64,000 bases of DNA from an uncultured Alphaproteobacteria bacterium (GTDB taxonomy: Bacteria; Pseudomonadota; Alphaproteobacteria; CAAGCB01; CAG-977). The stretch covers positions 18,443 to 82,442 of the forward strand of contig CALXOZ010000007.1 in NCBI GenBank assembly GCA_944390195.1. The letters run 5' to 3'. Within the stretch, counting starts at the first letter, position 1. Each line of letters starts with the position of its first letter. The notes beneath the pieces were generated by a model that saw nothing but the letters and a program-made list of their open reading frames with translations, was not told the DNA's origin and did not search any database. Position numbers and translations under genes: made by a program. Shown here piece after piece: positions 4,501 through 19,590 of this stretch.

Positions 4501-7112
4501 CTGTCGAACGTTACGGCGTTTTGGAATCGTTTGTTCAAAAACTCGATCAATCTGTGGATCAAATAAAAATTCCTGTAAAACCGGACTTTTTCCCTGGCGT
4601 ATATCTTTCCGTCGCAGTGTTTTCACAACGTGTGGAACCTTCCGGAAAATCATCTTCGCTTGATTTGGGAAAACCGGCTCAGTGGACGGGATATTTAAAG
4701 GTCGCCGTAGAAGATCCTTCCAACCGGATAAAAGTCGATATCCGTCCGTCAAAAAAGGAATACCGTCCCGGTGAAAAAATGACAGTTCAAATAAATGCGT
4801 CCGTCCAAACGCAAACGCGTCCACCGATCGAAGCGGCGGTCGTCGTTGTCGATGAAGCGGTGTTGTCTTTGCTTCCCGACGGAGTGAAGCGCTTTGATCC
4901 GTATGAAGGATTGAACAAACTTGGTAGTCTGGATGTTCGGACATACAGTTTGATACAACAGTTGATCGGGCGCCAGTCGGTGGAAAAAAAGGGAGCCGAT
5001 CAGGGCGGGGACGGCGGTTCCGATTTTGCTGTGCGCGATGTCTTTAAATTTGTCGGTTATTTCAATCCCTCTATCAAACTTGACGCGAACGGGACAGGGT
5101 CTTTTGAAATGACGATGCCGGACAATTTGACGGGATGGAAAATTATTGTCTTGGCTGTTAGTCCGGAAGATCTGAGTGGGATGGGACAAGCGGAAGTAAC
5201 CGTAACCCGCCCGTTGGAAATTAGGGCATTGTTACCGAACCGGTTGCGTACGGGGGATATATTTTATCCCGCCGTGTCCGTTTTTAACCGAACGAACCGG
5301 GACGCGGTATTGACGGTTTCCATGCAAGCTGAAGGTGATTTGGTTTCAACGGCGGTTGATGAAAAACAAATGAGGTTGCAAGCGTTTGAACGTAAAAAAG
5401 TTACATTTTCTCCTGTTAAGGCATATTTGAAACCTGAAGAAATGAAAGGGGCGGTTTCTTTGACATTCAAAGCTGATGACGGAGAAAATCGCGATGCTTT
5501 GAAACAACGGGTAGATGTTTTGAATTTGACGACACAACAAACGGCGGCATTGTTTGGCAGTGCGGAAGCGGGAAAAACAGAGATACCCGTTGATGTGCCT
5601 TCGGAAATCGAAAAATATGCGGGCGATTTGTCCGTATCGGTTTCTTGCAATGTTTTAAACGGTGTAACGCCGGTATTGCAAGCAATGCGCGATTATCCGT
5701 ATCCGTGCTGGGAACAGAAGATCAGTCGGGCAATTGCCGCAAGTGTTTATGTCGATCAACAAAACGCGATCGGATCGGGGGTATGGGACGATGCTCGAAA
5801 ATTCGTTTCGCAAATGTTGGATCAGGCGGCTTCATATCAAGCGCCGAACGGCGGAATGACCTATTTTGTTGCCCGAAATGATTTGGTCAGCCCTTATTTG
5901 TCGGCTTATACGGCGTATGCTTTTGATTTTCTGGAACGCCACGGTTACAGTATCCCACAGCAAGTCAAAGAAAAATTAACAGCATATTTATCGGACTTTT
6001 TTAAACGTACGGATGATTCCACAGATCGGAAAACGGTGTTGACGACACGGTTGTTATCTGCCGCCTTTTTAAAAAGGCAAGGGGTTGTCAAAGACGCTGA
6101 TATTATGGTTTTCGATCGTTCTGTGCCGTTGATGACGGCGTTTGACAAAGCTCTTTATCTGCAATTAGATCCGGATAATCCTTTGATTTTGAAAGACTTG
6201 ATGAATCAATCCCATCAAACTTCCGGCAGTCTGGTATTTAAAGAAACAGGTCAAAAAGATTATACGCTTTTGTCGTCTTCCTCAAAGACGACGTGTATGG
6301 CTTTGCTTGCCGTTTCCGATATCGACCTTGACATGGCGGAACGTTTGATGCGGGGGGCATACACTTTGCGAACTCCGGACGGGACATGGGAAAATACGCA
6401 AGCCAACGCCTTTTGTCTGATGGGACTTCAGACGTATGCCAAAAAAGCACAGTCCGGCAAGATCGATCTGGATATACAGGCTTTGTTTGATCGTAAAGAA
6501 CTTTTATCAGCATCATGTCGCCGCCAATCGGATCCTGCGTTTGAAAAGAAAATTTCCTTGTTACCCGATCAAGCCGGCAAAAAAGATCGACTGGAGTTGA
6601 ACGCCAAAGGGCAAGGGCGTTATTATTATTCAACAAATTTATCGTATCCGTCCGATCTGAATCAATCGGTGAATGCCGGTATCGAACTGAAACGGGAATA
6701 TTTTGTTTACCGTAATGGCGCTTATGTTCCGCTTGAGCGCTCCGATTCTTTGAAACAAGGGGAAAATGTCAAAGTAACGTTGACATTGAATAACCCTGTT
6801 CCTCAATATTTCATTGCTTTGACGGATCCGGTGGCAGGCGCTTTTGAACCTGTTAACGCCTTGCTGGCGATATCGTCTCAAAGCGATCAGGAAAGGGTGC
6901 AAGATCAAGACGGAACTTTTATAAAAGACATCGGTCATGATTTTGTCGGCTTTTATGCGCAATATTTGCCGGCGGGAGTGCATCAGGTTTCTTACTTGGC
7001 TCAAGTCGTTTGCGCCGGAGAATTTACAGCTTTTCCGGCGAAAGCGGAAGCAATGTACACTCCGGACATTTTTGGTTTGACAGCACGGGATATGATCAAG
7101 GTTGAACCGTAG
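1590..7112 (+). CDS. Alpha-2-macroglobulin family protein, large periplasmic thioester-type protease inhibitor.
   Basis: 1840-aa ORF with an N-terminal signal peptide (MSKKILCLLLFSGIVFFHTSVYA). CWEQ at nt 5706-5717 (YPYPCWEQ) matches the thioester CxEQ motif. It overlaps and is co-oriented with the downstream pbpC, which is the classic bacterial A2M-PbpC pair. Confidence 0.85.
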   Translation: MSKKILCLLLFSGIVFFHTSVYAESSLFVRRMVPEGTEVKPTDKIVFEFSEQVVPLGKMERSDNQVPIDIKPRLNCQWRWLNQSSLGCFLSSNDGLKPSTSYQIDVLKGFTALSGAQMASKQSFVLETVRPEINPSYSRFIRFVNPERPQWKIYFNTAAEPESVQKHIFFEVGDKRVEVRVTQEQCQTGKKDCFTQYFVEPVEDLGIDRSYELRYEAGFKSVQGGSLDSRKEGVIGRAKTLPAFKAEALQCYAKDFSLKSYTPQETRANPPECLFDYPVNIVLSGETVLENVGDFLKTKPLLSIQERPQVSNLISMYAPQAESFYSISLSDQLIDVWGSPLQQPVEFFFRSGSRSPQLDLPYSSVVLESGEKTRAVGYATNLNQVKIDFKGFDAQKSISGSYDIPEISSLIKNEPYPFDYGIRSMLNDKTGFIAGTVKSVPELSGNYVFTASVTPWQVVAKIGWKNSLVWVVDLKTGKPVREATVELSARPLFSSGDHKEQLQLVRTDETGRAVLKGYEKFDPEAKFLNQWEPDKDFLFLTVSKGNDIAVLPLKNEFSLSAGSLSDWAVYSVYSPEPYLYLRAFGFTPQGVYRPEDTVDFKIYVRQIDNEGKSGKAPASGYDLMVTDSSGKSVYEQKNLSLSEFGAFDGGFSLPSTAPSGWYNVVLKYKDASLYPIRFLVSDFSAPSFKSSTEIDSGVVNAKEKVEVVSRASLFSGGAYAKAKMRQSAVLSFASFSVKVGDKDFSFNPDLSNEDYASEILIDQEGSGDEKGELRQTFILPVSEKPHGKIRFETKVFDDSGRSVSSFAVADYFAVDRLVGLRNGTETAVVGKPVDMEYVVVDPRKKLVAGVPVNVVFSRKINKLIREKSAGNAYLMKYVQEDQKVAECMGMSATEIQKCSFIPEKSGLYKATAIINGYSSDLMFYVDGSDYVPWAFAENRLKIVPDKKVYQTGDTITLTVENPVPGAQALITVERYGVLESFVQKLDQSVDQIKIPVKPDFFPGVYLSVAVFSQRVEPSGKSSSLDLGKPAQWTGYLKVAVEDPSNRIKVDIRPSKKEYRPGEKMTVQINASVQTQTRPPIEAAVVVVDEAVLSLLPDGVKRFDPYEGLNKLGSLDVRTYSLIQQLIGRQSVEKKGADQGGDGGSDFAVRDVFKFVGYFNPSIKLDANGTGSFEMTMPDNLTGWKIIVLAVSPEDLSGMGQAEVTVTRPLEIRALLPNRLRTGDIFYPAVSVFNRTNRDAVLTVSMQAEGDLVSTAVDEKQMRLQAFERKKVTFSPVKAYLKPEEMKGAVSLTFKADDGENRDALKQRVDVLNLTTQQTAALFGSAEAGKTEIPVDVPSEIEKYAGDLSVSVSCNVLNGVTPVLQAMRDYPYPCWEQKISRAIAASVYVDQQNAIGSGVWDDARKFVSQMLDQAASYQAPNGGMTYFVARNDLVSPYLSAYTAYAFDFLERHGYSIPQQVKEKLTAYLSDFFKRTDDSTDRKTVLTTRLLSAAFLKRQGVVKDADIMVFDRSVPLMTAFDKALYLQLDPDNPLILKDLMNQSHQTSGSLVFKETGQKDYTLLSSSSKTTCMALLAVSDIDLDMAERLMRGAYTLRTPDGTWENTQANAFCLMGLQTYAKKAQSGKIDLDIQALFDRKELLSASCRRQSDPAFEKKISLLPDQAGKKDRLELNAKGQGRYYYSTNLSYPSDLNQSVNAGIELKREYFVYRNGAYVPLERSDSLKQGENVKVTLTLNNPVPQYFIALTDPVAGAFEPVNALLAISSQSDQERVQDQDGTFIKDIGHDFVGFYAQYLPAGVHQVSYLAQVVCAGEFTAFPAKAEAMYTPDIFGLTARDMIKVEP

Positions 7113-9225
7113 TTTGAAAAAACAAGTTGTTTTCGGTGTGGCGGCGGTTATCTTGTGCCTGAGTGTCATACTGGCGGCTGTTTTTATGAAAACAGCCGCT
7201 TTGCCGGATTCTTTCGACCGGTTGGTTGGCGAATCCGGTAAAACTCAATTTTTGGATTCATCGGGAGAAATACTGAATGCGTCTTATCAAAGCTATTGGA
7301 ATGTTCATGACCGGTTGAAGTTATACGAGATACCGCCGTTATTGGTGAAAATGTTCGTTTTTTCGGAAGATAAAAACTTTTATGAGCATTCCGGCGTTGA
7401 TTTTTTGGCAAAAGCGGCGGCATTTGTTCAAAATGTCAAAGCCTTGAAAATCGTTCGAGGAGCCAGTTCCCTAAGTGAGCAGGTTGTTCGCATGATCGTT
7501 CCCAGAACGCGGACTTTTTTTTCAAAGATCGTGGAAGGTGTTGATGCCGTTCGATTAGAACACCGGTTTTTAAAAAATGACATTTTAGAGTTTTATCTTA
7601 ATCAGGTTCCGTACTCTTCCAACAGACGGGGGATAAAACAAGCGGCTGCATATTATTTTTCAAAGACTCCCGATCGTTTGACAATACGGGAAATGGCGGC
7701 GTTGGTTGTTTTAATCAGAGCTCCGTCTTCGTATGACTTGTATCGTTTTCCTGAAAGGACTGAAGCTTTGATCGACCGGCAGTTGAAAAAATTTAAAGAC
7801 AACAGCCTTATCAACGAACAAGAGTATCAAAGCGCTTTGAAAGAACGGATACAGCTTGTCCCTCCCGAATTGATTGTGTCCGCCAATCATTTTTTGGAAT
7901 ATGTGCGTTTTCTTGAATTGCCCAGTGGACAAGCGATTGAAACGACGTTGGACGCTTTTTTTCAAAAAAAGATATCGGATCTGACACGTCAGCGTTTGAA
8001 AGATTTGCGTTACAGGCATGTGTCAAATGCAGCCGTTTTGGTTGTTGAACGTGAAAGCGGTCGTATTTTATCTTGGGGTGTTGAAAGCACGGATGAAAAA
8101 ACAGCGGCTATTAATGCAGTTTTGGTGGCGCGTCAACCGGCGTCCGCGCAAAAACCGCTACTATATGCTTTGGCGTTGACAAAAGGGATGAGAAGCTGGA
8201 CGGAGATAAACGACGCTCCTTTTTCAAGACCCGTCGGGCAAGGGATCCATCACTTTAAAAACTACAGCCGCACGCATTATGGAAAAGTTACAATGCGTGA
8301 AGCTTTGGGAAATTCGTTGAATATTCCCGCATTGAAAACGATCGAATTTACAGGGATAAAAACGTACTTCGATTTTTTGAAACGCACGGGGTTTTCAGGG
8401 TTGGACAAGCCGTTTGATTTTTATCGGGAAGGGCTGGCTTTGGGAAACGCCGAGGTAACATTGTTCGATTTGACGCGGGCTTATTTGATGTTGGCGAATG
8501 CGGGCGTGTTAAAACCTTTGAAGGCTTTTGAAGGGCAGGAAACCGAGCCTGAAAAACGCGTTCTGCCAGAAACGTCGGCGACTTTGATCGGTAATATCCT
8601 GTCAGATCCTTTGGCAAGGCAATTGGAATTCGGATCGGACAGCATTTTGAATTTTCCCGTACAGACTGCTGTAAAAACAGGGACTTCGACGGATTATCGG
8701 GACGCGTGGGCCATGGGATATAATTCGGATTTCGTTGTCGGTGTGTGGATGGGGAATTTGGACTATCGCCCGATGCTCAATGTAACAGGGGCGGTCGGAC
8801 CGGCGTTATTGCTCCGTTCCGTTTTCGGCGAGCTTAATAAAATGAAAAAAGGGAAGCCCCTTTATTTATCACCGTCTTTAAAAGAAAGGAAAATCGCCGG
8901 AAAGACGGAATATTTTGATCCTGATATTCCGGAAACCGTTTTTTTTGATGATGTCGATCCGGTTGTGGTTTCTCCTGCCGGATCCGTGTCAATAGCGTTG
9001 GATCCGCGTGTGCCGGAACAATATCAAGCTTATCCTTTTTCAATTTCTTTTTTGCCCGAAGGGGCGAGTGTTGTCTGGTCGGTAGACGGGAAAGAATGTA
9101 AAACCGTTCAAACAGACACTTTTTTGTGGCAACCTCGAAAAGGAAATCATACAGTGCAAGCCGAGATCATTTTAAATGATGGTAGGAAAATTATTTTGCC
9201 GCAACGCCGAATAAGCGTTCATTAA
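7102..9225 (+). CDS. pbpC: Penicillin-binding protein 1C, a bifunctional transglycosylase/transpeptidase.
   Basis: 707 aa. TTG start at 7102 overlaps the a2m stop. The glycosyltransferase motif EDKNFYEHSGVD is present, as are the transpeptidase SxxK (SAQK), SLN (SLNIP) and KTG (KTGTS) motifs. Paired with a2m. Confidence 0.85.
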   Translation: MNRSLKKQVVFGVAAVILCLSVILAAVFMKTAALPDSFDRLVGESGKTQFLDSSGEILNASYQSYWNVHDRLKLYEIPPLLVKMFVFSEDKNFYEHSGVDFLAKAAAFVQNVKALKIVRGASSLSEQVVRMIVPRTRTFFSKIVEGVDAVRLEHRFLKNDILEFYLNQVPYSSNRRGIKQAAAYYFSKTPDRLTIREMAALVVLIRAPSSYDLYRFPERTEALIDRQLKKFKDNSLINEQEYQSALKERIQLVPPELIVSANHFLEYVRFLELPSGQAIETTLDAFFQKKISDLTRQRLKDLRYRHVSNAAVLVVERESGRILSWGVESTDEKTAAINAVLVARQPASAQKPLLYALALTKGMRSWTEINDAPFSRPVGQGIHHFKNYSRTHYGKVTMREALGNSLNIPALKTIEFTGIKTYFDFLKRTGFSGLDKPFDFYREGLALGNAEVTLFDLTRAYLMLANAGVLKPLKAFEGQETEPEKRVLPETSATLIGNILSDPLARQLEFGSDSILNFPVQTAVKTGTSTDYRDAWAMGYNSDFVVGVWMGNLDYRPMLNVTGAVGPALLLRSVFGELNKMKKGKPLYLSPSLKERKIAGKTEYFDPDIPETVFFDDVDPVVVSPAGSVSIALDPRVPEQYQAYPFSISFLPEGASVVWSVDGKECKTVQTDTFLWQPRKGNHTVQAEIILNDGRKIILPQRRISVH

Positions 9226-9237
9226 AAAAGGAGTGCC

Positions 9238-10491
9238 ATGAAAAAACCAGAATTATTGTTACCGGCGGGATCTCCGGAAGCTTTGGAAACGGCTTTTTTA
9301 TATGGAGCCGACGCCGTTTATGCCGGATTATCCTCTTTGTCTTTGCGTACGACACGGGGGTTCAGCATGGAAACGCTTCGAGAGGCGATTGAAAAAGCGC
9401 ATCGGAAAAATAAGAAGATCTATCTGACGCTGAATCTTTTTTCAAAGAACAGCGATCTTGACAAGCTGTCCGGTTTTGCACAGACAGTGAATCTACTTGA
9501 TCCGGACGGTCTGATTGTTTCTGATCCCGGAGTGTTTATGTTTATGAAAAAACATGCGCCGTCCATACCATTACACATTTCCACCCAAGCCAATGTCGGA
9601 TCAAGCCTGACAGTTGACTTTTGGCGTTCTTTGGGGGCAAAAGCCTGTGTTTTATCCAGAGAAACGTCTTTTGCGGAGATTTGTGAGATCAAAAAACAAA
9701 TTCCCGACATGAAAATCGAGATGTTCATTCACGGTTCCATGTGTATGAGTTATTCCGGTCGTTGCCTTTTATCTTCTTTTTTGACGGGACGCAGCGCGAA
9801 TCGAGGGCAATGCGCGCATGTATGCCGTTGGAAATATAAATTGTTTTTACAAGAGGAAAGCCGTCCGTTTGAGTTTTTCCCGATACAGGAAGATGAACGC
9901 GGAACATATATCATGAATTCCAAAGACCTTTGTTTGATGCCGAAATTGGATTTGATTTTAAAGGCTGGAATTGATTTGTTAAAAGTCGAAGGGCGCAACA
10001 AAACGCCTTATTATGTCGCTCAAACGGCGAGAGTGTATCGCAAAGCCATCGACGATTGGTTTGAAAATCCGGATGATTGGGATTTCAAACCGTATCAAGC
10101 GGAGTTGGATACATTGCAAAACAGGGGGTATACGTTCGGTTTTTTTGACGGTGTTCCGGACGGTTGCGCACAAAATTACGAATCGACGCAAAGTGTGTCG
10201 GAATACCGTAATGCGGCGGTGATTTCCGATTGGACGGAGCAGGGGGCTGAAGCTGTCATTTACCAAAAAATAAACAGCGGAGACACATTGTCTTTTTTAT
10301 CACCGTATCATTTTTCTCCGGTCGATATAACCATTTCAAGGCTTATTGACGGTTTTTCTAAAAAAGAGGTTGACGTTCTTTCTCCGGGACGTGTCGGGCA
10401 AAGCATTTTCATACCGCGTTCTTTTTTCGGAAAATTCACTGCGGCGGAACTTCCCGTTTTCACAGTGGCACGCTTGAAAGTGAAAAGGTGA
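9238..10491 (+). CDS. Peptidase U32 family protein, collagenase-like (possibly RlhA/TrhP-type).
   Basis: 417 aa. N-terminus LLLPAGSPEALETAFLYGADAVYAG is typical of U32. Cys-rich C-terminal part CxxxxC...C. Confidence 0.8.
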   Translation: MKKPELLLPAGSPEALETAFLYGADAVYAGLSSLSLRTTRGFSMETLREAIEKAHRKNKKIYLTLNLFSKNSDLDKLSGFAQTVNLLDPDGLIVSDPGVFMFMKKHAPSIPLHISTQANVGSSLTVDFWRSLGAKACVLSRETSFAEICEIKKQIPDMKIEMFIHGSMCMSYSGRCLLSSFLTGRSANRGQCAHVCRWKYKLFLQEESRPFEFFPIQEDERGTYIMNSKDLCLMPKLDLILKAGIDLLKVEGRNKTPYYVAQTARVYRKAIDDWFENPDDWDFKPYQAELDTLQNRGYTFGFFDGVPDGCAQNYESTQSVSEYRNAAVISDWTEQGAEAVIYQKINSGDTLSFLSPYHFSPVDITISRLIDGFSKKEVDVLSPGRVGQSIFIPRSFFGKFTAAELPVFTVARLKVKR

Positions 10492-10518
10492 AATAGCATT
10501 TTGATTTCCGGCTTACTT

Positions 10519-10540
10519 TTGCTAAGATGGCTCTTAGCAG
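10519..10540. promoter_or_regulatory. Perfect 8-bp inverted repeat TGCTAAGA-tggc-TCTTAGCA in the U32 to lipoprotein intergenic region.
   Basis: Seen directly, 18 bp upstream of the ATG at 10558. No flanking U-run on the appropriate side, so it is not a canonical terminator. Possible operator or RNA hairpin. Confidence 0.25.
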
Positions 10541-10557
10541 AAAAATGAGGATCTTAA

Positions 10558-11229
10558 ATGAATACGGCGTTGAAAGTCTTTTGCCTGACAGTTCTTTTGG
10601 CATCTTGTACCATTGTCGAATATAAACATGAACCTACAAAAGTGCAGCCGATTGTAAAGCTGTCTTTGATTGATCGCATTCAAACACAAATTGTTGACAT
10701 GCAAAGAGACGTACTTGACGCGCTGCCTGATGAAATTGCGGGATTTAAATCGGTGGAACCCGCAGCGAACCGAGAACAAAACAAACGCGGGGCGGGGTAT
10801 ACGCGTGTTTATCTGGCAGGAGATATCGTTGCAACGGTTTTTGTTTATAATGATCGGGACTTTGATATCCCCGTAAAAATCGATTCAAAAGTGGAAAACC
10901 TGATGGACAAACATCTTGATACGTTTCAGGTCATGCAGTCCTATAAGAATGTTAAAACAGGCAAGGCAAAAAAACGCAATTTCCGTTGGCGTGGCGTGAA
11001 TTATCAAGTGTTGGAGGCGGATGTTGAATTTTCTCAACGCGATGAAGATAAAAAGTCTTTGCTTGTTTTGGGGACGAACAAGGATTTGATGTCGTATGTT
11101 CGTATTCATTATACTTATCCGAAGGCGAAACAAGCGGAAGTGAATAAAAAGAACATTGCTTTCACCCGTTCTGTTTTCGTGGCTTTGCATGATTTCGCCG
11201 TTGCTCAAAATTCACCTGTCGCGCAATAA
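10558..11229 (+). CDS. Hypothetical lipoprotein.
   Basis: 223 aa. Signal peptide plus lipobox LLASC. No recognisable catalytic motif. Confidence 0.5.
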   Translation: MNTALKVFCLTVLLASCTIVEYKHEPTKVQPIVKLSLIDRIQTQIVDMQRDVLDALPDEIAGFKSVEPAANREQNKRGAGYTRVYLAGDIVATVFVYNDRDFDIPVKIDSKVENLMDKHLDTFQVMQSYKNVKTGKAKKRNFRWRGVNYQVLEADVEFSQRDEDKKSLLVLGTNKDLMSYVRIHYTYPKAKQAEVNKKNIAFTRSVFVALHDFAVAQNSPVAQ

Positions 11230-11241
11230 ACCGATAAAGAG

Positions 11242-11670
11242 ATGTTTATGAAGAAATATATTGTTTTATTTTTGTTTTTTCTTTCCGGATGCACCGTAGA
11301 TCCTTCCGGAGAAATCAACCGGACACTGGATATGATGAATCAAGCTTATGAAAATAAAGATCTTGATGCTTTTATGTACTTTATCAGTCCGAATTATTTG
11401 GGGAAAAAAGATATTCTGCAGATCGGTGTTGAAAATGATTTCGCCGGCTTTACGGAAATAGATTATCAAACATCCGTTTTTCATACGGATATCGATCCTC
11501 AAAGCGGTATATATCAGGCGGATGTGTCTTATTCCCGTTCTTTGAAGTCCCCGCGTCATGGCGTCGATAATCAAGAAGGAAAAGCTTTTCTGACGTTTAT
11601 TAAAAAAGACGGCGAATTGAAACTGGTAGATATGTCTGATCCGACACTATACGGTATAATTGCTCCATAA
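11242..11670 (+). CDS. Hypothetical lipoprotein with an NTF2-like (SnoaL/DUF4440-like) fold.
   Basis: 142 aa. Lipobox LSGC. YENKDLDAFMYFISPNY resembles the N-terminal helix pattern of NTF2-like domains. This is inference. Confidence 0.4.
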   Translation: MFMKKYIVLFLFFLSGCTVDPSGEINRTLDMMNQAYENKDLDAFMYFISPNYLGKKDILQIGVENDFAGFTEIDYQTSVFHTDIDPQSGIYQADVSYSRSLKSPRHGVDNQEGKAFLTFIKKDGELKLVDMSDPTLYGIIAP

Positions 11671-11684
11671 AGTTGAAGAAGGTT

Positions 11685-14213
11685 ATGTTGAACGCTGAAG
11701 AAATTATGCAGATGTATGAATCTGCTTATGATGCGCCGCGCGCTTTCGATCCCTTGCATCCTCAGGACGGAACGCTGTCCAGAAAACAAGATGGTCTGCC
11801 GCCTTTGGCGTTGAATGCGGAACAGGTCAAAGCCTGTGTTTCATTGTTGGAACAGGGAAAACAAACACAAAAGATGTTGGACTGCCTGTTAAACCGCGTC
11901 TGTGCGGGTACGTCCGATGCCGCGGCGGTAAAAGCGGATTTTCTGGGACGTGTGGCAAAAAAACAGGTTTTGATTAAAGGCTTGTCCGAACGCGAGGCAA
12001 TCGATCATTTGGGGTATATGAAGGGCGGTCATAATATAGCCGTGTTGATTTCCTTGTTGCAAAATGATGAAACGGCGCCGGCTGCTGTTGCCGTCTTATC
12101 TGAATTGGTTCTTATTTATCAGGCTTTGGATAAAGTAAAATGCTTGTATGAAGCCGGCAACAAATATGCCGCCGCTTTGCTGGAAGCATGGGCAAGGGCG
12201 GATTGGTTCACCCATCGGCACGCATTGGAAGACGAAACGGAACTGGTCGTTTTTAAAATTCCTGACGATATAGAGGCTTCTACGGATTTTTTATCCCATT
12301 CAAAAGGGGGACATACCAGAACGGATATTCCCTTTCATGCCAAACATTATTTTATGAATGAAAAGCTGTTGACCGAATTGGAAGCTTTGAAGTCTGCACA
12401 TCCTGATACCCAAGTGGTTCTGGTCGCCGATAAAATCGGGACGAGCTCTTCCCGTAAATCCGGCATGAACAATATCGAATACAATATCGGTGTGGAAAAT
12501 GAGGATACGCGTTTCCAGCCGGATAAAAAAACACGGGCAATCATTTTCGCCGGAAGTGTTTTAGGACCGATTTTCGCCAAGACGGCTCAAGATATGGGTT
12601 CGATCATTGTTCGTGTGGATACGGACTTGTTCCATACGGGGGATAAAATCCGTGTCGTGTGGCGAACAGGGGAAATTTTATCGCAAACAAGGGAAAAGAG
12701 AGCTTCATTCGTTCCTTTGAAGCAAGAAGAGTTGGACAGTTTGCAAGCCGGCGGGGCGACGGTCTTCCGTATGGGAAAGATATTGACGGCGAAAGCTTCG
12801 GAAATCATAGGCAGAAAATTTCCTTTGCCTTATGGCGAACCGAAGGGTGACGACCAAGATCATCCTATGAGCGCTGCGCAAAAGATCATTGCGAAAGCAG
12901 CCGGATTGAAAAGTGTCCGTCCTTCTCAAACCGTTTATGCCAAAGTGGATACGGTGGCGTCCCAAGATACAACCGGAGCCATGACGGTGCAAGAATTACA
13001 AGGAACCTTAGCAGCGATGCAGTTGGCTGTTCCGTTATTCTTGCAATCGCAATGCCATAATGCCGCTTTGGGATTCAGAACCCCCGCCGTTGTGGAAGCG
13101 AACAAAAAACTGACGGACTTTATAAGAAAAACCGGCGGGATCACTTTGAACATGGGAGACGGTATCATTCATTCATGGCTTAATGAATTGGTCGTCCCGA
13201 ATACGATTGTCGTTGGGGGGGATTCCCATACACGGACTCCGCGAGCGTTGAGTTTTCCTTTGGGATCAGGGGGAATCGCTGAAGCCGCCGCTACCGGTAT
13301 AACGCAAATTACCATCCCCGAGAGTGTGTTGGTTCGTCTGAAAGGCGAGTTCATTCCGGGGATCACCGTAAGGGATCTGGTTAATTATATTCCTTATAAA
13401 GCTCAAAAGTTGTTCGGGAAAAACGTCTTTGAAGGGGCGATTATCGAATTTCAAAGAACCGGTTCCCCTTTTGAAATGATAGATGTTTTTAAAATGACAA
13501 ATTCTTCTGCGGAACGTTCCGCCGCTGCGGCTTATTTTGAACAAGACGCAACGATATTGGCGGACTATATCCGTGAACACAGCTTGCCATTAATCAAACG
13601 GATGATCGAAACGGGGTATGACAATCATTCTGTTTTAGAAAACAGGTGTCAAGCTTTACAAGCTTATCTGGACGATCCGCAAGAAGTTCATTTTGATGAT
13701 GAGTCTGTTTTCAAATATGTTTTAGAGATTGATTTGGAGGAAATCGACCAGCCTTACATTGCTTGTCCGCACACTCCCGATCATGTAAAGCCTTTATCTG
13801 AATTGGCGGGGATTCCCGTAGAGTTTTGTTTCGTCGGTTCATGTATGTCGGGACGGACGGATTTTGAAGATTTCGAGCGTGTAACACGTCCTGTTCAATC
13901 TTTACAAGCCGAAACATGGGTTGCGCCGCCTACTCGCATGATTGCATACGAGTTGCAACAAGCGGGGATATTGGATGCCTTGAAAGAACGGGGGGGTCGT
14001 GTGGAAATTTCCGGATGTTCTTTGTGCATGGGGAATCAAGAGCGTGTTCAAGGGCGACGTAATGTGTTGACGACATCGACACGGAATTTTAAAGGACGCA
14101 TGGGAGACGAAGCCAGTGTTTATCTGGTCTCGGCTTGTGTAGCGGCGACAGGGGCGTTGTTCGGTCGTTTCCCCGCGTTGGATGAATATTTTAAGGCGGT
14201 AAAAAATGGTTAA
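11685..14213 (+). CDS. acnB: Aconitate hydratase B (bifunctional aconitase / 2-methylisocitrate dehydratase).
   Basis: The track ORF begins with TTG at 11673. I favour the ATG at 11685 (MLNAEEIM...), which sits after the GAAGAAGG SD. The N-terminal HEAT-like region, GGDSHTRTP and SGCSLCMGNQERVQGRR match AcnB signatures (SDSHT, SCSLCMGNQARV). About 842 aa. Confidence 0.85.
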   Translation: MLNAEEIMQMYESAYDAPRAFDPLHPQDGTLSRKQDGLPPLALNAEQVKACVSLLEQGKQTQKMLDCLLNRVCAGTSDAAAVKADFLGRVAKKQVLIKGLSEREAIDHLGYMKGGHNIAVLISLLQNDETAPAAVAVLSELVLIYQALDKVKCLYEAGNKYAAALLEAWARADWFTHRHALEDETELVVFKIPDDIEASTDFLSHSKGGHTRTDIPFHAKHYFMNEKLLTELEALKSAHPDTQVVLVADKIGTSSSRKSGMNNIEYNIGVENEDTRFQPDKKTRAIIFAGSVLGPIFAKTAQDMGSIIVRVDTDLFHTGDKIRVVWRTGEILSQTREKRASFVPLKQEELDSLQAGGATVFRMGKILTAKASEIIGRKFPLPYGEPKGDDQDHPMSAAQKIIAKAAGLKSVRPSQTVYAKVDTVASQDTTGAMTVQELQGTLAAMQLAVPLFLQSQCHNAALGFRTPAVVEANKKLTDFIRKTGGITLNMGDGIIHSWLNELVVPNTIVVGGDSHTRTPRALSFPLGSGGIAEAAATGITQITIPESVLVRLKGEFIPGITVRDLVNYIPYKAQKLFGKNVFEGAIIEFQRTGSPFEMIDVFKMTNSSAERSAAAAYFEQDATILADYIREHSLPLIKRMIETGYDNHSVLENRCQALQAYLDDPQEVHFDDESVFKYVLEIDLEEIDQPYIACPHTPDHVKPLSELAGIPVEFCFVGSCMSGRTDFEDFERVTRPVQSLQAETWVAPPTRMIAYELQQAGILDALKERGGRVEISGCSLCMGNQERVQGRRNVLTTSTRNFKGRMGDEASVYLVSACVAATGALFGRFPALDEYFKAVKNG

Positions 14214-15987
14214 GTCTTTTGTCAATGTTGTTCTTCCTGAAGAAACGGCGGGGTTGGCTTATGAAATTGTAAAAAAGGAACTTATTGAGGCTTTCCCTGA
14301 TTTTGTCGGTCAAAACCGTTTGCGTGAACATGATTGGAGTTTGAAAAACAGGATTCAAACAAACGGGGAAGTGATCAAGGAAACATTGGAGCTGGTCGGC
14401 GGAGATGAAAACGCCGTTTTGATCAAAGGTCCGGGGATTACACCGACAAAAGAACAAACGCAAAGTGTTTTGACCATGCTTGATGATTCGCGTAAACCCG
14501 AAGAACTCGGGAAGTTGGTAACAGGGACGCCGAACGGGTATTTGCGCGGGCATTGGTTGGTGAAAGGTAACCTTGAACGTTATGAAAATCCCGGTTTGTC
14601 GGATTTATTGATCTCTTCTTTGCCGGTTTACGATGCGGCGCAAAAGCCCGACGTATTGTTTTTAGAGGGCGGCAGAAAAAAAGACGGTTTCTTTTTCATA
14701 TTGGATAAAGAGTGCGAAGTGCGTGTCGATTTTAACCGGCATACGGTACGGGAACCGGAAAAGTTATCCGCCGGTTCGGCTGTTTATGCTAAATTCACAC
14801 GCCGCAAAGATGTTTGTGATCTGTGCGATAAGGCGATCGCGAAAAGAAAACCGGTTGTTTTTATGTCGAAATATACTGTTCGCCCGCAATTGGACGGTGA
14901 AAAGAAAAAGATCTATAACGACCAAAGACAAAAAGCCGGATTGAAACGGTTGGAAGGCAATCAAGGGGATATTGTTGATGCGGCTTTTGCGCGGTTATTG
15001 GCTCGTCCTGAAAATCGCCCGATAACAGTTTTAGTTCCGGATCCCTCTTACGGTCCGAAAATAGCAACTGTTCTGAGTGCGGTCTATGGGCGAGGGGTAA
15101 AACGGCATTCGGGCGGATTTTCGGTGTGCCGTTTTTCCGCGGGCAAAAGTGAATATGGCGGATTGAACCACGTCGTTGATGTCGACGGGGAATACAAAAT
15201 CGTGATCGGTTCTCAGGAATATAAAATTCCGGTCAAAGCCGGTGATATGTTTGAAGAAATGCACTATGATTATGCGGATGCGAAACGTTATGTCAAACAG
15301 GTCTTTCATCAGGCGATGATCAAAAAGTATGATCGTGTCGTTTTCGCTTTTGATGAAGCGGATCCGTATGATACACCAGTGATCAAAGCTGTTCGGGAAA
15401 CCGCTTTGAAGTTGAAAAAAGTCGAAGGTGATGATTTCTTGATCATGAAGCCTGATGAGGCTGCTGTGATGATGTTTACCGCGCCTTTGCCCGGAGGCAC
15501 ATGTTATGCGTACGATAATTTATGGGGCGATATCGTTTCGGATGCCATAGATTTGGGAACCAGCATAGCTTCCATTGATTCTGTCATTTTATTGGCTGAC
15601 GGGCGCGTGTGGGTCGAAATGGGGGCGGCAGGAACGGCACCGGATTTGATGACTCTTTATAAAAAAGAAGGTCTTCTGCGTTATGACCCTATCCCTATCA
15701 TCGAAGCGTTCAGTATCGGTTTTACGCAAGCGGCTTTAAAAGAACCGGAAAATGAAAAGCTGGCGGTTTATGCCACAGCCCTGCATCAAGCTTATTTGAA
15801 TGTTTTGAAAAAAGGAATTGCCACGCCGGATCTTGTCGAAAAATTAAAACAAGAACATAAAACCGGTGTCGATACGCTGTCGTTCGTAAAGGCGGTCAAA
15901 GTGGAATTGTCAATTCTTTTGGGGTTGAAAGAACAGGAAGGTCTTTTCCGGTCGGATTTTGAAAAAACATTAAAGGAAATCAGATGA
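14206..15987 (+). CDS. Monomeric-type isocitrate dehydrogenase homologue, unusually short at 593 aa.
   Basis: Three segments resemble monomeric IDH (Azotobacter type): the N-terminus VVLPEETAGLAYEIVKKELIEAF, NAVLIKGPGITPT, and DNLWGDIVSDAIDLGTSIAS...EMGAAGTAPD, the last matching the IDH-family NLxxDxxSD...GTAP substrate loop. It overlaps the acnB stop (ATGGTTAA) and the gltA start (ATGA), giving an acn-icd-glt operon context. Confidence 0.5.
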   Translation: MVKSFVNVVLPEETAGLAYEIVKKELIEAFPDFVGQNRLREHDWSLKNRIQTNGEVIKETLELVGGDENAVLIKGPGITPTKEQTQSVLTMLDDSRKPEELGKLVTGTPNGYLRGHWLVKGNLERYENPGLSDLLISSLPVYDAAQKPDVLFLEGGRKKDGFFFILDKECEVRVDFNRHTVREPEKLSAGSAVYAKFTRRKDVCDLCDKAIAKRKPVVFMSKYTVRPQLDGEKKKIYNDQRQKAGLKRLEGNQGDIVDAAFARLLARPENRPITVLVPDPSYGPKIATVLSAVYGRGVKRHSGGFSVCRFSAGKSEYGGLNHVVDVDGEYKIVIGSQEYKIPVKAGDMFEEMHYDYADAKRYVKQVFHQAMIKKYDRVVFAFDEADPYDTPVIKAVRETALKLKKVEGDDFLIMKPDEAAVMMFTAPLPGGTCYAYDNLWGDIVSDAIDLGTSIASIDSVILLADGRVWVEMGAAGTAPDLMTLYKKEGLLRYDPIPIIEAFSIGFTQAALKEPENEKLAVYATALHQAYLNVLKKGIATPDLVEKLKQEHKTGVDTLSFVKAVKVELSILLGLKEQEGLFRSDFEKTLKEIR

Positions 15988-17279
15988 TGGCAAAAACAGT
16001 CAAACTGGAATACGATGGAAAACAGATTGAAATGCCGTTGGTGGAATCAACCACCGGCGAAATGTGTATAGATATTTCGGAACTTCGTTCAAAAACGGGA
16101 CTGACGACATTGGATCCTGGATTCGGAAACACGGCTTCATGTGTCAGCAGGATCACTTATGTCAACGGGGAAAAAGGCATACTTCGTTATCGTGGCATTC
16201 CGATTGAAACGGTTGCCGAAAAAATGACGTTTGTCGAAACAGCATGGTTGTTGATTTACGGGCGTTTGCCGACGATGTCCGAAATGAAAACATTCAGTAC
16301 GCGTTTGACTAATAATGAATTGTTGCATGAAGGCTTGTTGCATCATTTCGACGCTTTTCCACCCAACGGGCAACCCATGTCGATTTTATCAGCGGTTATT
16401 AATTCTTTAATCTGTTATTCTCCGGAAATCATGGATACGACAGATGAAGAAGCCATGCGTAACGCTGTCGCCGCCATCATTTCTAAAGTGCGCACGATTG
16501 CCGCATTTTCTTATCGTAAAGCAATGGGATTGCCTTTTGTTTATCCGGATCCCGCCAGAAGTTATTGTGAAAACTTTTTGCATATGATGTTTTCAATTCC
16601 GCATAAGCCGCATCAACCGACACCTGAAGCGATAAAGGCTCTGAACTTGTTTTTAATGCTACATGCGGATCATGAACAGAATTGTTCGACTTCAACTGTT
16701 CGCATTGTCGGATCGGCGGAAACGAATTTGTTTTCTTCGGTAGCCTCCGGTGTGTGCGCTTTATGGGGAAAATTGCACGGAGGGGCGAATGTCGCCGTTT
16801 TTGAAATGCTTTCCCGTTTGGCACAGGGGAAGGAAAATATTGACGATTTCGTTCAAAGGGTTAAAAACAAGCAAGTCCGTTTAATGGGCTTCGGGCATCG
16901 TGTTTATAAAACATTCGATCCGAGGGCGAAGATTTTAAAAAAAGCCGTTTTCGACCTTTTGGAAACGCAACGGATTGACGATCCTTTGATTGACATCGCT
17001 TTGAAGTTGGAAGAAAAGGCGTTGAATGATGATTACTTTAAAGAACGCCATCTTTACCCTAATGTCGATTTTTATTCTGGGATGATCTTAAGGGCGTTGA
17101 AAATTCCTTTGAACATGTATACGGTGATGTTTGCGATCGGTCGCGTTCCGGGCTGGATAGCGCATTGGCGCGAAGGCAATGAAGGAGCTCGCCGTTTGGC
17201 AAGGCCGAGACAGTTGTATCAAGGAGCCGTCGATACGCCTTTTGTGCCGATTGAACTGCGTCATGGAGACGAACTTTAA
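15984..17279 (+). CDS. gltA: Citrate synthase.
   Basis: 431 aa. KLEYDGKQIEMPLVESTTGE...LDPGF...GILRYRGIPIE and GFGHRVYK are classic citrate synthase motifs. The start overlaps the preceding gene. Confidence 0.9.
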   Translation: MMAKTVKLEYDGKQIEMPLVESTTGEMCIDISELRSKTGLTTLDPGFGNTASCVSRITYVNGEKGILRYRGIPIETVAEKMTFVETAWLLIYGRLPTMSEMKTFSTRLTNNELLHEGLLHHFDAFPPNGQPMSILSAVINSLICYSPEIMDTTDEEAMRNAVAAIISKVRTIAAFSYRKAMGLPFVYPDPARSYCENFLHMMFSIPHKPHQPTPEAIKALNLFLMLHADHEQNCSTSTVRIVGSAETNLFSSVASGVCALWGKLHGGANVAVFEMLSRLAQGKENIDDFVQRVKNKQVRLMGFGHRVYKTFDPRAKILKKAVFDLLETQRIDDPLIDIALKLEEKALNDDYFKERHLYPNVDFYSGMILRALKIPLNMYTVMFAIGRVPGWIAHWREGNEGARRLARPRQLYQGAVDTPFVPIELRHGDEL

Positions 17280-17387
17280 TCGTTCTTTGATTTTTGATAT
17301 TTTCCGGATCGTACCGGATATTGAAAGACAATCTGTTCCGGATTTCGCGAAAACAGGGGGCAGTTTTTCTTACTTGGAAATTTTTCT

Positions 17388-17425
17388 GAAAGCAGCTTTG
17401 GCTTTGGAAGGGCTTTCCTGTTTTT
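17388..17425 (+). terminator. Probable intrinsic terminator after gltA.
   Basis: GAAAGC...GCTTTC stem followed by CTGTTTTT, about 110 nt after the gltA stop. The stem is imperfect. Confidence 0.4.
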
Positions 17426-17990
17426 AACGGATAAATAGTGTCGTAATGCCTTCCTGAGAAAGCTCTCCTCCGAAATGCATAAAACAAAGCATCGACGGAT
17501 CATCTGTAAAGGATTGTTGTTTGTTTTATTGTAGGGCATATATTTCAGGAGGGCTGTTTAAATATTTGCGATTTTTGCGTCATTTTTGCAGATAATCACC
17601 GTTACTTTTTGAAAAGGCGGGGAAGGGGAAGCGTTCTGTCAATCTTGATGTCGAAAACAGTAAGGAAATTTATCAGACAGTGTTGATTTTTCCAGTTTGA
17701 AACGATATCAGCAATAAAGCTTTTTTATCAAGAAGTGATGTAAAAGCTTCACTTGATTTTTTCCGTCCAACAACTTGTTAAAATCCTTTACCTTTAAAAA
17801 ATACCTAATACATACCCCGTATGTTTTGGAACAAAATATTGAAAACGGCTTTTGTTAAATGATGCCTTCGTTTGTTAGACATGACCGGAAGGGTGTGGAC
17901 TTTTGTTTGATCGCCTAATGTCTTGATGTCGTTTTTGATTTTTTTGTGTACTGTTATTATATTGCCGGTATGATATTTCAGGAGAAGCCG

Positions 17991-18347
17991 ATGGCGGTAA
18001 ATGAGCAATTGATCGCAAAAAAAATGGCAAAGGCTTTAGCGTTTTTATGTTTGAATGAACATCTTCAAACGCCTTTGCATAACGGGGAACACCCCGTATC
18101 AAAAACAGGTGATTATTCCGATGTTTTCATCACCGATGCCGAAGGGCGTCAAATCGTTTGGTGCCAAGCTTGTCGTGTGTCATGCAAAGAACGCGAGAGA
18201 GTGTTTGATGATGTCGCAAAAGGGATTTATGATTTTTTACTCAACATTGAAACGGATTTTTATACCAGACGGTTGGAACGCGCATATCGTGCTTGCGTCC
18301 ATTGGAAAAAAGAAGGACTTAAAAAAAAGACAAAAAGGAGAATATAG
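17991..18347 (+). CDS. Hypothetical small protein, 118 aa.
   Basis: The track ORF starts at 17946. I prefer the ATG at 17991, preceded by the AGGAGAAG SD (MAVNEQLIAKK...). A candidate promoter TTGTGT-N17-TATTAT lies upstream. Lys-rich C-terminus. No family recognised. Confidence 0.35.
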   Translation: MAVNEQLIAKKMAKALAFLCLNEHLQTPLHNGEHPVSKTGDYSDVFITDAEGRQIVWCQACRVSCKERERVFDDVAKGIYDFLLNIETDFYTRRLERAYRACVHWKKEGLKKKTKRRI

Positions 18348-18423
18348 CTTTTTTTTGTTTCTTTTATAACGGATTCAAGGTAAAACAAAAATAAGTGTTT
18401 TAACCGATGGATCTGATTTTGAT

Positions 18424-19590
18424 ATGAAAAAATCTGCGTTTTCGGGATTGTTGCCTGTCGGTATGACAGATGTTCTTCCTCCCTTCGTCGATGACGAAGC
18501 CAAGGCTGTAGAAAAAATTATTAATGTGTTCCAAAATAACGGTTATCAACGTGTCGAACCGCCTTTATTGGAATTTGAAGAAACATTATTATCTGAAAAA
18601 TATGTCGATTTATCGCTTCAAACTTTTCGCTTAACGGATTCCGTTTCCGGAAAAATCATGGGATTGCGTGCGGATATGACACCGCAAATCAGCCGGATTG
18701 CCGTAACACGGCTGAAAGACGAACCGCGTCCGCTCCGCTTGGCTTATTTGGGGCACGTTGTGCGTGTTTTTGCCGATCAATTAAATCCATCGCGTCAAAT
18801 TTTGCAAGTCGGAGCCGAGTTGATCGGGGCGGATTGCGCAAAAGCGGACGGAGAAATCATTCTGTTGGCGGCGGAGGCTTTGAGACATTTGAAAATTTCT
18901 TCCGTCATTTTCGATTTGAATTTGCCGACATTATTTCCAGCATTATGTTCAGCAGTCGATATAAATCGTGAAGATCGTGAAAAAATGGTAGATTTTCTTA
19001 ACCGGAAAGACTTTTCCGCCGTGTTGTCGGTATTGGAAACGACAAACAGAAAGGCGCGGGAAGCAAAGCCTTTGTTTGAAGCTTTGTTCCAAGCGTTCGG
19101 GGATTGTCAGCGTGTTTTGGAAATCTTGCGCCCTTTGCGTTTACCACAAGAAGCGGCAGCCGAATGTCATCGTCTGTTTGATGTTATCGCTTTGTTGAAA
19201 AAAGAAGCTCCGGATTTGTCCGTAACAGTAGATGTTCTGGAAAACAGAGGGTTTGAATATCATACGGGGATAGGCTTTTCCGTCTTTTCCAAGCAAAACG
19301 AACATGAATTAGGGCGAGGCGGGCGTTATATCGCCGGTATGGATGGAGCTGTATCACAACCGGCGGTCGGAGTAACGTTGTTTGTTGCCGACATTTTGAA
19401 CGTCTTGAATGACAGGGAAGTGAAAAAAAGAGTGTATGTTCCTATGGATGTTTCTTTTTCACAAGCCGCTCAATTGCGTGAAAAAGGGTATGTAACGGTT
19501 TGTGCGTTAAAATCCGGAAACGATATAGAGGAGGCACGGCGTTTGTCGTGTTCTTGGATTTATTCAAGCGGATGTGTCCAACCGCTTTAG
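18424..19590 (+). CDS. hisZ: ATP phosphoribosyltransferase regulatory subunit HisZ (HisRS paralogue lacking the anticodon-binding domain).
   Basis: 388 aa, the size of HisZ rather than HisS. Class II aaRS-like core with RVEPPLLEFEETL and GLRADMTPQI motifs, and no C-terminal anticodon-binding domain. Confidence 0.6.
   Translation: MKKSAFSGLLPVGMTDVLPPFVDDEAKAVEKIINVFQNNGYQRVEPPLLEFEETLLSEKYVDLSLQTFRLTDSVSGKIMGLRADMTPQISRIAVTRLKDEPRPLRLAYLGHVVRVFADQLNPSRQILQVGAELIGADCAKADGEIILLAAEALRHLKISSVIFDLNLPTLFPALCSAVDINREDREKMVDFLNRKDFSAVLSVLETTNRKAREAKPLFEALFQAFGDCQRVLEILRPLRLPQEAAAECHRLFDVIALLKKEAPDLSVTVDVLENRGFEYHTGIGFSVFSKQNEHELGRGGRYIAGMDGAVSQPAVGVTLFVADILNVLNDREVKKRVYVPMDVSFSQAAQLREKGYVTVCALKSGNDIEEARRLSCSWIYSSGCVQPL

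Follow-up and report, generated by a model that had tools for sequence, protein, structure and literature searches.

A partial gene duplication is thought to have given rise to monomeric isocitrate dehydrogenases (IDHs) from dimeric precursors. The monomeric enzymes, treated in the literature as a uniform class, form part of the type III IDHs, which are given as proteins of ~740 amino acids (aa) and are divided into monomeric NAD(P), dimeric, and tetrameric subgroups (PMC8287583). The type III chain of ~740 residues has a mass of 80-85 kDa (PMC8287583, PMC5979607) and, as published for one such enzyme, folds into domain I (residues 5-134 and 564-739) and domain II (residues 135-563) (PMC5979607). 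Monomeric members considered here are the enzymes of Azotobacter vinelandii (AvIDH; 1ITW/1J1W), Corynebacterium glutamicum (2B0T), Mycobacterium (ICD2; 5KVU/4ZDA), and Pseudomonas aeruginosa (IDH2; 6G3U), as well as the NAD+-specific monomeric IDHs of Campylobacter (CaIDH and CcIDH). Type II homodimers, represented by human IDH1, the Thermotoga maritima enzyme (1ZOR), and the NAD-IDH of Ostreococcus tauri (6IXL), have chains of ~410 aa and rely on the partner chain for the active-site Lys and Asp. The icd-like gene described in the following (positions 14206 to 15987 on the forward strand, stop codon included) lies in a stretch of 64,000 nucleotides (nt), called the window below, from the contig CALXOZ010000007.1 of an uncultured Alphaproteobacteria bacterium. 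It codes for a 593-aa compact homologue of the type III (monomeric-fold) IDHs. With a probability of about 0.8, this open reading frame (ORF) encodes a functional single-chain type III IDH in an unusually short form.

An earlier note, made from the DNA letters, had recognized a monomeric-type IDH homologue in this ORF, and profiles, predicted fold, an invariant catalytic set, and conserved synteny all agree with this assignment. The Pfam profile of the monomeric IDHs, PF03971, matches with 57.2 bits (gathering cutoff 25), covering residues 275-537 only (profile positions 371-640), and PF00180 scores 31 bits on the 593-aa protein. Among the sequences of the PDB, human IDH1 gives the best match, over the last 120 residues (E 1.6e-10), followed by monomeric IDHs with E-values of 1e-9 to 1e-4, the best of them 7Y1U. 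Profiles were aligned by hhalign, with 21 family members on one side and canonical monomeric IDHs headed by AvIDH, whose residue numbering was verified against its sequence, on the other. This profile-profile alignment has a probability of 99.7% and pairs residues 3-590 of the window protein with AvIDH 3-689 at 21% identity.

An AlphaFold2 model built on the family alignment reaches a mean predicted local distance difference test score (pLDDT) of 87.6 and a predicted template modelling score of 0.88. In a Foldseek comparison of this model with the PDB, the top 14 matches are all monomeric-type IDHs (7Y1U, 5KVU, 1ITW/1J1W, 6G3U, 4ZDA, 2B0T, and 5Z16 among the entries; TMq 0.68-0.79, E 1e-25 to 1e-30), and the C. 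corcagiensis enzyme 7Y1U is the best of them (E 1e-30, TMq 0.78), whereas type II dimers span about half of the query (TMq ~0.5). Superposition places 560 of the 593 residues on monomeric IDH and ~379 on the type II dimer 1ZOR, at identities to solved IDHs of 15-19%. The model shows the two-domain single-chain fold of the monomeric IDHs, with both pseudo-dimer halves held in domain II, where the same secondary-structure pattern occurs twice. Unlike the type II enzymes, the protein has an extra ~170-residue half-domain that would make the site self-contained. Because the leading structural matches are all of the monomeric type and the type II dimers reach half coverage, the modelled fold is that of a single-chain type III architecture and not that of a dimeric IDH with an appendage.

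The active site follows the same pattern. The catalytic residues of AvIDH, which we take to be Ser132, Asn135, Arg139, Arg145, Lys255, Asp350, Tyr420, Asp548, and Asp552 (residue identities checked in the sequence), recur in the window protein in the monomeric order Ser/Thr, Asn, Arg, Arg, Lys, Asp, Tyr, Asp, Asp, and the metal motif D-x-x-x-D and the cofactor loop G-x-G-G-(S/T)-A-P are likewise common to both. The substrate-binding loop, T108-P-N110-G-Y-L-R114 ... K-G-N-L-E-R125 (14527-14580, forward strand), corresponds to AvIDH S132, N135, R139, and R145; hhalign pairs T108 with S132, N110 with N135, and R125 with R145, and R114 is assigned to R139 by the constant Asn-to-Arg spacing of 4. 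Lys120, picked by eye as the counterpart of AvIDH Arg145, was dropped as profile alignment and conservation favour Arg125. The first half of domain II (residues 128-300; 14587-15105, forward strand), which also holds the largest deletion, contains the catalytic K222 (codon 14869-14871) and the metal ligand D258 (codon 14977-14979), aligned with AvIDH K255 and D350. In the second half (residues 301-452; 15106-15561, forward strand), Y317 (15154-15156) is paired with Y420, and the motif D442-I-V-S-D446 (15529-15543) brings D442 and D446 onto D548 and D552; R309 (15130-15132) lies in the same half. Lys and Asp followed by Tyr, Asp, and Asp is the order that marks a monomeric enzyme, in which the first half of domain II acts as the second subunit.

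All of these positions are highly conserved. N110, R114, R125, K222, D258, R309, Y317, D442, and D446 are invariant in 21 of 21 family members (49-77% identity to the window protein), T108 is replaced by Ser in two of them, and the substrate-loop and catalytic columns remain invariant or nearly so in 19 relatives at ~20% identity. The motifs from which the homology had originally been read, PEETAGLAYEIV, NAVLIKGPGITPT, DNLWGDIVSD, LGTS, and EMGAAGTAPD, are all present in the protein and pair in the profile alignment with AvIDH TDEAPALATYSL, ANIIKLPNISAS, GNVLRDYLTD, LGTS, and ETGAGGSAPK, respectively.

Several points nevertheless weigh against the assignment as a functional type III IDH. The NCBIfam equivalog of the monomeric NADP-IDHs, TIGR00178, is missed by ~900 bits (46.1 bits vs a cutoff of 950), and the type II equivalogs TIGR00127 (44 bits vs 397) and NF006156 (43 vs 335) also stay below their cutoffs and match the C-terminal 140 residues only. 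The model is least confident just at the substrate loop (residues 101-120, pLDDT 58-66). When residues 128-300 were aligned with residues 300-452 by hhalign, the expected register of an internal repeat was found, yet without significance (E 0.15, probability 0.4%), so that the pseudo-dimer claim rests on the fold match and not on sequence self-similarity. Gly441 stands at the position of AvIDH Arg547, presumably the third isocitrate-binding arginine of the type III enzymes, and the role proposed below for its substitute, R309, rests on covariation and not on coordinates. Activity, substrate, monomeric state, and metal requirement, finally, are inferred.

In the hhalign alignment, R309 faces AvIDH G411 and G441 faces AvIDH R547. 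R309, 8 residues before the catalytic Tyr, occupies the position of the R132/R153 arginine of dimeric IDHs. The window protein resembles the type II enzymes in carrying its third arginine on the strand before the catalytic Tyr (R132 in IDH1) and a Gly before the first metal Asp. A covariation table of 49 aligned sequences gives the arrangement Arg...Gly for the gut family, for 18 of 19 odd-length relatives, and for the full-length proteins P0077, P0117, and P0119; P0115 has Val at the second position (the AvIDH R547 column). The opposite arrangement, Gly...Arg, is seen in 10 of the 11 other canonical sequences, AvIDH included, the eleventh (P0129) being aberrant, with Gly at the second position and no aligned residue at the R309 column. 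In type II dimers the second position is Gly, and their own arginine did not fall into the R309 column of the alignment. With the exception of P0129, none of the 49 sequences shows Arg at both or at neither position, which argues that the site would keep three arginines, with R309 taking the role of Arg547. P0077, P0117, and P0119 (765, 746, and 741 aa) combine Arg at the Gly411 position and Gly at the Arg547 position with Asp-Leu at the positions of Lys588/His589, so that neither the relocated arginine nor the non-NADP-type loop is limited to short forms.

This loop concerns the cofactor. In type III enzymes, the 2'-phosphate of NADP+ is liganded by His589, Arg600, and Arg649 (PMC4360740, PMC10574006). 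The NAD+-specific Campylobacter IDH carries Leu and Asp at the His589 and Arg600 positions, and NAD+-specific type II enzymes have Asp/Met at the pair equivalent to IDH1 R314/H315 (PMC4360740). The cofactor loop of the window protein, G473-A-A-G-T-A-P-D480-L481 ... R492-Y-D494 (15622-15687, forward strand), was aligned by hhalign with AvIDH G581...K588-H589...R600-W-D602. Lys588 is here replaced by Asp480 (Ala in 5 of 21 family members) and His589 by Leu481 (Met or Phe in 2 of 21). Leu at the His589 position is shared with CaIDH (Leu584), a full-length enzyme of 731 aa vs 593 aa here, and the D-L pair stands where NAD-specific type II enzymes have D-M (OlIDH D326/M327) (PMC4360740). In contrast to CaIDH with its Asp at the Arg600 position, the 593-aa family retains Arg600 as Arg/Lys492, and around Arg649, where the alignment is poor, there is a mostly basic residue, Lys552. 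NAD+ specificity had been considered on the grounds of Asp480/Leu481 and was rejected, since Arg492, the equivalent of Arg600, is conserved and P. aeruginosa IDH2 stays NADP-dependent when it carries H589L as its single mutation (PMC10574006). As judged from these residues, the preference for NAD+ or NADP+ is undecided, and the database label ‘NADP-dependent’ of these proteins, resting on a weak domain match, may be wrong.

Taken as a single-chain IDH, the polypeptide would form by itself the pseudo-dimer that two subunits form in ordinary IDHs, with domain I built from residues ~1-127 and ~453-593 and the twofold-repeated domain II from residues ~128-452. The first half of domain II would provide Lys222 and Asp258, which dimeric IDHs borrow from the partner subunit, and the second half Tyr317, Asp442, and Asp446. 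Isocitrate would be bound through its three carboxylates by Arg114, Arg125, and Arg309, with Thr108 and Asn110 reading the gamma-carboxylate, and in the presence of Mn2+ or Mg2+ and NAD(P)+ the substrate would be oxidatively decarboxylated to 2-oxoglutarate. An obligate homo-oligomer after the fashion of Acinetobacter IDH2 or diatom IDH2, with inter-subunit contacts possibly replacing the deleted segments, is unlikely. Dimeric and tetrameric type III IDHs are documented (PMC5979607, PMC8287583), and loss of a 47-aa helical segment and of the C-terminus could expose surfaces; however, the model puts the full catalytic set into one chain, monomeric IDHs that work alone typically show this order of Lys, Asp, Tyr, Asp, and Asp, and no feature requiring a partner is apparent in the sequence.

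The gene is conserved together with its neighbours. A word-indexed protein search, clustered at 90% identity, returned 77 clusters, of which 72 are full-length proteins of 592-595 aa with 61-77% identity to the window protein; the rest consist of three shorter, probably truncated, sequences, one 629-aa protein (49% identity), and one canonical 765-aa enzyme (E 5e-5). A scan of species-representative genomes gave 27 loci, all in uncultured Alphaproteobacteria of gut origin (human, rumen, horse, and others), with ‘Acetobacter sp. CAG:977’ among them; we take these genomes to belong to the GTDB order RF32. A 71-kb contig filed under ‘Limosilactobacillus gorillae’ (L015, CAVCSV010000007.1) bears an alphaproteobacterial PBP-U32-acnB-icd-gltA locus with a layout near-identical to those of L014 and L016-L018 and is probably mis-binned. 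Writing X for the icd-like gene, the order acnB-X-gltA occurs in 25 of 25 loci with an upstream flank, in most cases behind a U32 peptidase gene and two ORFs that have no annotation, and the remaining two of the 27, truncated upstream, keep X-gltA; identical contigs show the same order. On one contig with an identical icd-like protein (L031, 10020-11311), gltA is divided into two ORFs (140 and 282 aa), a frameshift or assembly error.

The neighbours in the window had been named acnB and gltA in the earlier note, and both identities stand with NCBIfam equivalog scores above cutoff. The upstream gene encodes AcnB (NF006690, 795 bits vs 782), with the Pfam domains Aconitase_B_N, Aconitase_2_N, and Aconitase, and the downstream gene a citrate synthase of type I (NF004126, 554 bits vs 505). 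Adjacency, co-orientation, and conservation in related genomes identify acnB-icd-gltA as a predicted operon. Translation of the icd-like gene would be coupled to that of acnB on its upstream side and of gltA on its downstream side, and the three-gene unit would lead from oxaloacetate and acetyl-CoA via citrate and isocitrate to 2-oxoglutarate. The proposal that the operon context points to 2-oxoglutarate supply is most probably right in view of the conserved synteny. The gene is under purifying selection (dN/dS 0.07-0.11 in unsaturated pairs, Nei-Gojobori method); since the catalytic residues are invariant and dN/dS is low, a pseudoenzyme is for practical purposes excluded.

An altered specificity, raised in the earlier note as an alternative, would make the protein a beta-decarboxylating dehydrogenase of the same fold that acts on homoisocitrate, 3-isopropylmalate, tartrate/D-malate, or a 2-methylisocitrate-related substrate and not as the IDH of the tricarboxylic acid cycle. 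The extreme divergence (15-19% identity to solved IDHs), the failed IDH equivalog cutoffs, and the NCBIfam annotation of AcnB as bifunctional with 2-methylisocitrate dehydratase would fit such an enzyme. This possibility is nonetheless very unlikely, given the conserved Ser/Thr108-x-Asn110 motif for the isocitrate gamma-carboxylate and the three conserved arginines. The Ser/Thr-x-Asn motif is, by comparison with S113/N115 of Escherichia coli IDH, presumably IDH-specific. Furthermore, structural matches to isopropylmalate/homoisocitrate dehydrogenases span ~330 residues vs 560 for monomeric IDH, the downstream gene passes the equivalog of type I citrate synthase and not that of 2-methylcitrate synthase, and the gene trio from citrate to 2-oxoglutarate is present in every locus that retains its flanks.

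The most obvious difference from the canonical monomeric IDHs is the length. With 593 aa, the chain falls short of every characterised type III member (~740 residues) by about 150 residues and of AvIDH (741 aa) by 148, in line with the original estimate of about 150 aa, and the alignment leaves part of the canonical protein uncovered. Without counterpart are AvIDH 52-59, 110-116, and 121-127 in the N-terminal part of domain I (~22 residues, before residue ~105 of the window protein), AvIDH 203-207, and, between Lys255 and Asp350, AvIDH 265-268, 282-288, 297-343, and 361-367 (~65 residues), of which 297-343 (47 aa) is the largest single gap. At the C-terminus, about the last 40-50 AvIDH residues (~690-741) are absent. 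When these gaps are mapped on the published domain limits, domains I and II are both trimmed. The expectation that the loss would fall between residues 95 and 460 was therefore correct for a little over half of it, the ~22 N-terminal and ~50 C-terminal residues lying outside. Besides length, the protein is set apart from the canonical monomeric enzymes by an identity of 15-21%, Gly in place of Arg547, Arg309 at the Gly411 position, and Asp/Leu in place of Lys588/His589.

Closer to the window protein than any canonical IDH is a group of rare metagenomic relatives. When 1.8 billion representatives were searched exhaustively with a profile, only 118 matches at E<=1e-3 came up, among them ~20 full-length proteins of 589-813 aa (P0084-P0101, P0104, and P0115) that score between the family and the canonical 741-aa enzymes (E 1e-28 to 1e-67, except P0115 at 7e-15, vs ~1e-13 for the canonical enzymes). 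They differ in length and insertions, have the catalytic set in common and mostly Arg...Gly and Asp-Leu, and are ~27% identical to the window protein; two of them, P0089 (589 aa) and P0095 (596 aa), are just as short. A word-indexed search with a profile of the 19 intermediate relatives gave 5 matches and nothing new. Outside the 593-aa group, the nearest relative is the 629-aa P0076 (L029, 8001-9890, GCA_054015435.1; 49% identity), whose gene adjoins glnA, pyrF, and a Crp-type regulator, with type IV secretion genes close by; neither this gene nor that of P0094 lies in an acnB-gltA operon.

A neighbour-joining distance tree was computed from 370 well-occupied columns and rooted on the type II dimers, with P0129 excluded. 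The gut family is monophyletic (99.5%). The clade of the canonical enzymes has 100% support, and neither the gut family nor any of the 19 odd-length relatives falls inside it. P0089, P0095, and P0096 (~590-670 aa) adjoin the type II dimers, with 99.5% for the split. All other branch orders are poorly supported (24-55%) in this rough distance tree with its long branches. The gut family is 19% identical to the canonical clade vs 21% to the type II dimers. On these sequences, the 593-aa form does not fall within the canonical enzymes that were sampled, and the tree does not settle whether its shortness is ancestral or derived.

The term ‘minimised’ used in the earlier note fits in so far as the form is compact, whereas a reduction from a 740-aa form would be conjectural; the rough tree places the family outside the canonical clade, among other short or odd-length relatives. 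Secondary minimisation of a ~740-aa monomeric IDH by reductive evolution in a gut symbiont, as opposed to a deep-branching short lineage, is possible but doubtful. It would agree with the fold and domain order, which match those of the 740-aa enzymes, with the peripheral and scattered missing segments, as repeated small deletions would leave them, and with the R309-type arginine and D-L pair of the full-length P0077, P0117, and P0119. Evidence to the contrary comes from the 100% canonical clade, which excludes the monophyletic gut family and the 19 odd-length relatives (a point limited by rough distances, long branches, and the 24-55% support of the deeper nodes), and from the 19% identity to the canonical clade, no higher than the 21% to type II dimers. 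Tentatively, and with the odds rather against it, the 593-aa enzymes and the 589-813-aa relatives might constitute an unrecognised deep-branching subfamily of single-chain IDHs that preserves an early step on the way from a type II-like dimer to the monomeric enzyme. In such a subfamily, the half-domain duplication would already be present, together with the dimer-type third arginine (no Arg547) and the NAD-type D-L pair, without the later helical and C-terminal embellishments.

In the window, the ORF runs from an ATG to a TGA stop at 15985-15987 and, as had been noted, overlaps both neighbours, which is evident from the junction sequences. The gene acnB (aconitate hydratase 2; 11673-14213, forward strand) is delimited by NF006690, its Pfam domains, the junction sequence, and gene calls. 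Its TAA stop (14211-14213) is read in ...AAAAATGGTTAAG, and the icd-like ATG at 14206 sits within the last acnB codons, giving an overlap of 8 nt (ATGGTTAA). At its other end, the acnB start is ambiguous: TTG 11673 follows from the ORF rule, and gene callers start 12 nt later (11685), yielding 842 aa. The gene gltA (type I citrate synthase; 15984-17279, forward strand) is delimited by NF004126, the junction sequence, and gene calls. At the junction ...ATCAGATGATGG, its ATG at 15984 forms an ATGA overlap with the icd-like stop; the start lies in a tandem ATGATG, and the second in-frame ATG (15987), chosen by gene callers on identical contigs, would give a 1-nt TGATG overlap. Both start ambiguities leave the icd-like ORF unaffected. 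A promoter/terminator consensus scan of 9000-18500 gave the same counts as in shuffled sequence, and no operon boundaries were placed. Other IDH-like ORFs are absent from the window.

Upstream of acnB, two ORFs at 10558-11229 and 11242-11670 (both forward strand; 223 and 142 aa) match no profile of Pfam or NCBIfam, even with the threshold relaxed to E<=1. In 23 of the 27 related loci, the pair stands in this order behind the U32 peptidase gene and ahead of acnB, and the remaining four end before these positions are reached. The two ORFs may be transcribed as one unit with acnB-icd-gltA. Further upstream, an 1840-aa bacterial alpha-2-macroglobulin with MG2, A2M_BRD, A2M, and bMG10 domains is encoded at 1590-7112 (forward strand), and its gene overlaps by 11 nt with that of a PBP1C-type transglycosylase/transpeptidase at 7102-9225 (forward strand); A2M-PbpC is a known gene pair. 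Downstream of purA, a 682-aa ORF (20995-23043, forward strand) has a sub-threshold protein kinase domain match (23.7 bits vs a cutoff of 31.7) and 65-73% identity in related loci.

The proteins of this family are already present in databases under an automatic IDH name, and the identity of the gene as such is no surprise. In the literature search, no paper was found on a ~590-aa form, a ‘type IV’ IDH, or an IDH of these gut (RF32) Alphaproteobacteria. New are the compact architecture, the relocation of the arginine, and the position outside the canonical clade. A conserved and evidently functional 593-aa version would indicate which ~150 residues of the architecture are dispensable, and the covariation suggests that the third substrate arginine can occupy either of two positions. 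Being small and tractable, the protein lends itself to structural and evolutionary study of the change from dimer to monomer. Whether the 2-oxoglutarate branch yields NADH or NADPH matters for metabolic models of gut and rumen Alphaproteobacteria. If the short enzymes do represent a deep-branching subfamily, the canonical 740-aa NADP enzymes would be derived, and the short enzymes would be near-minimal working versions.

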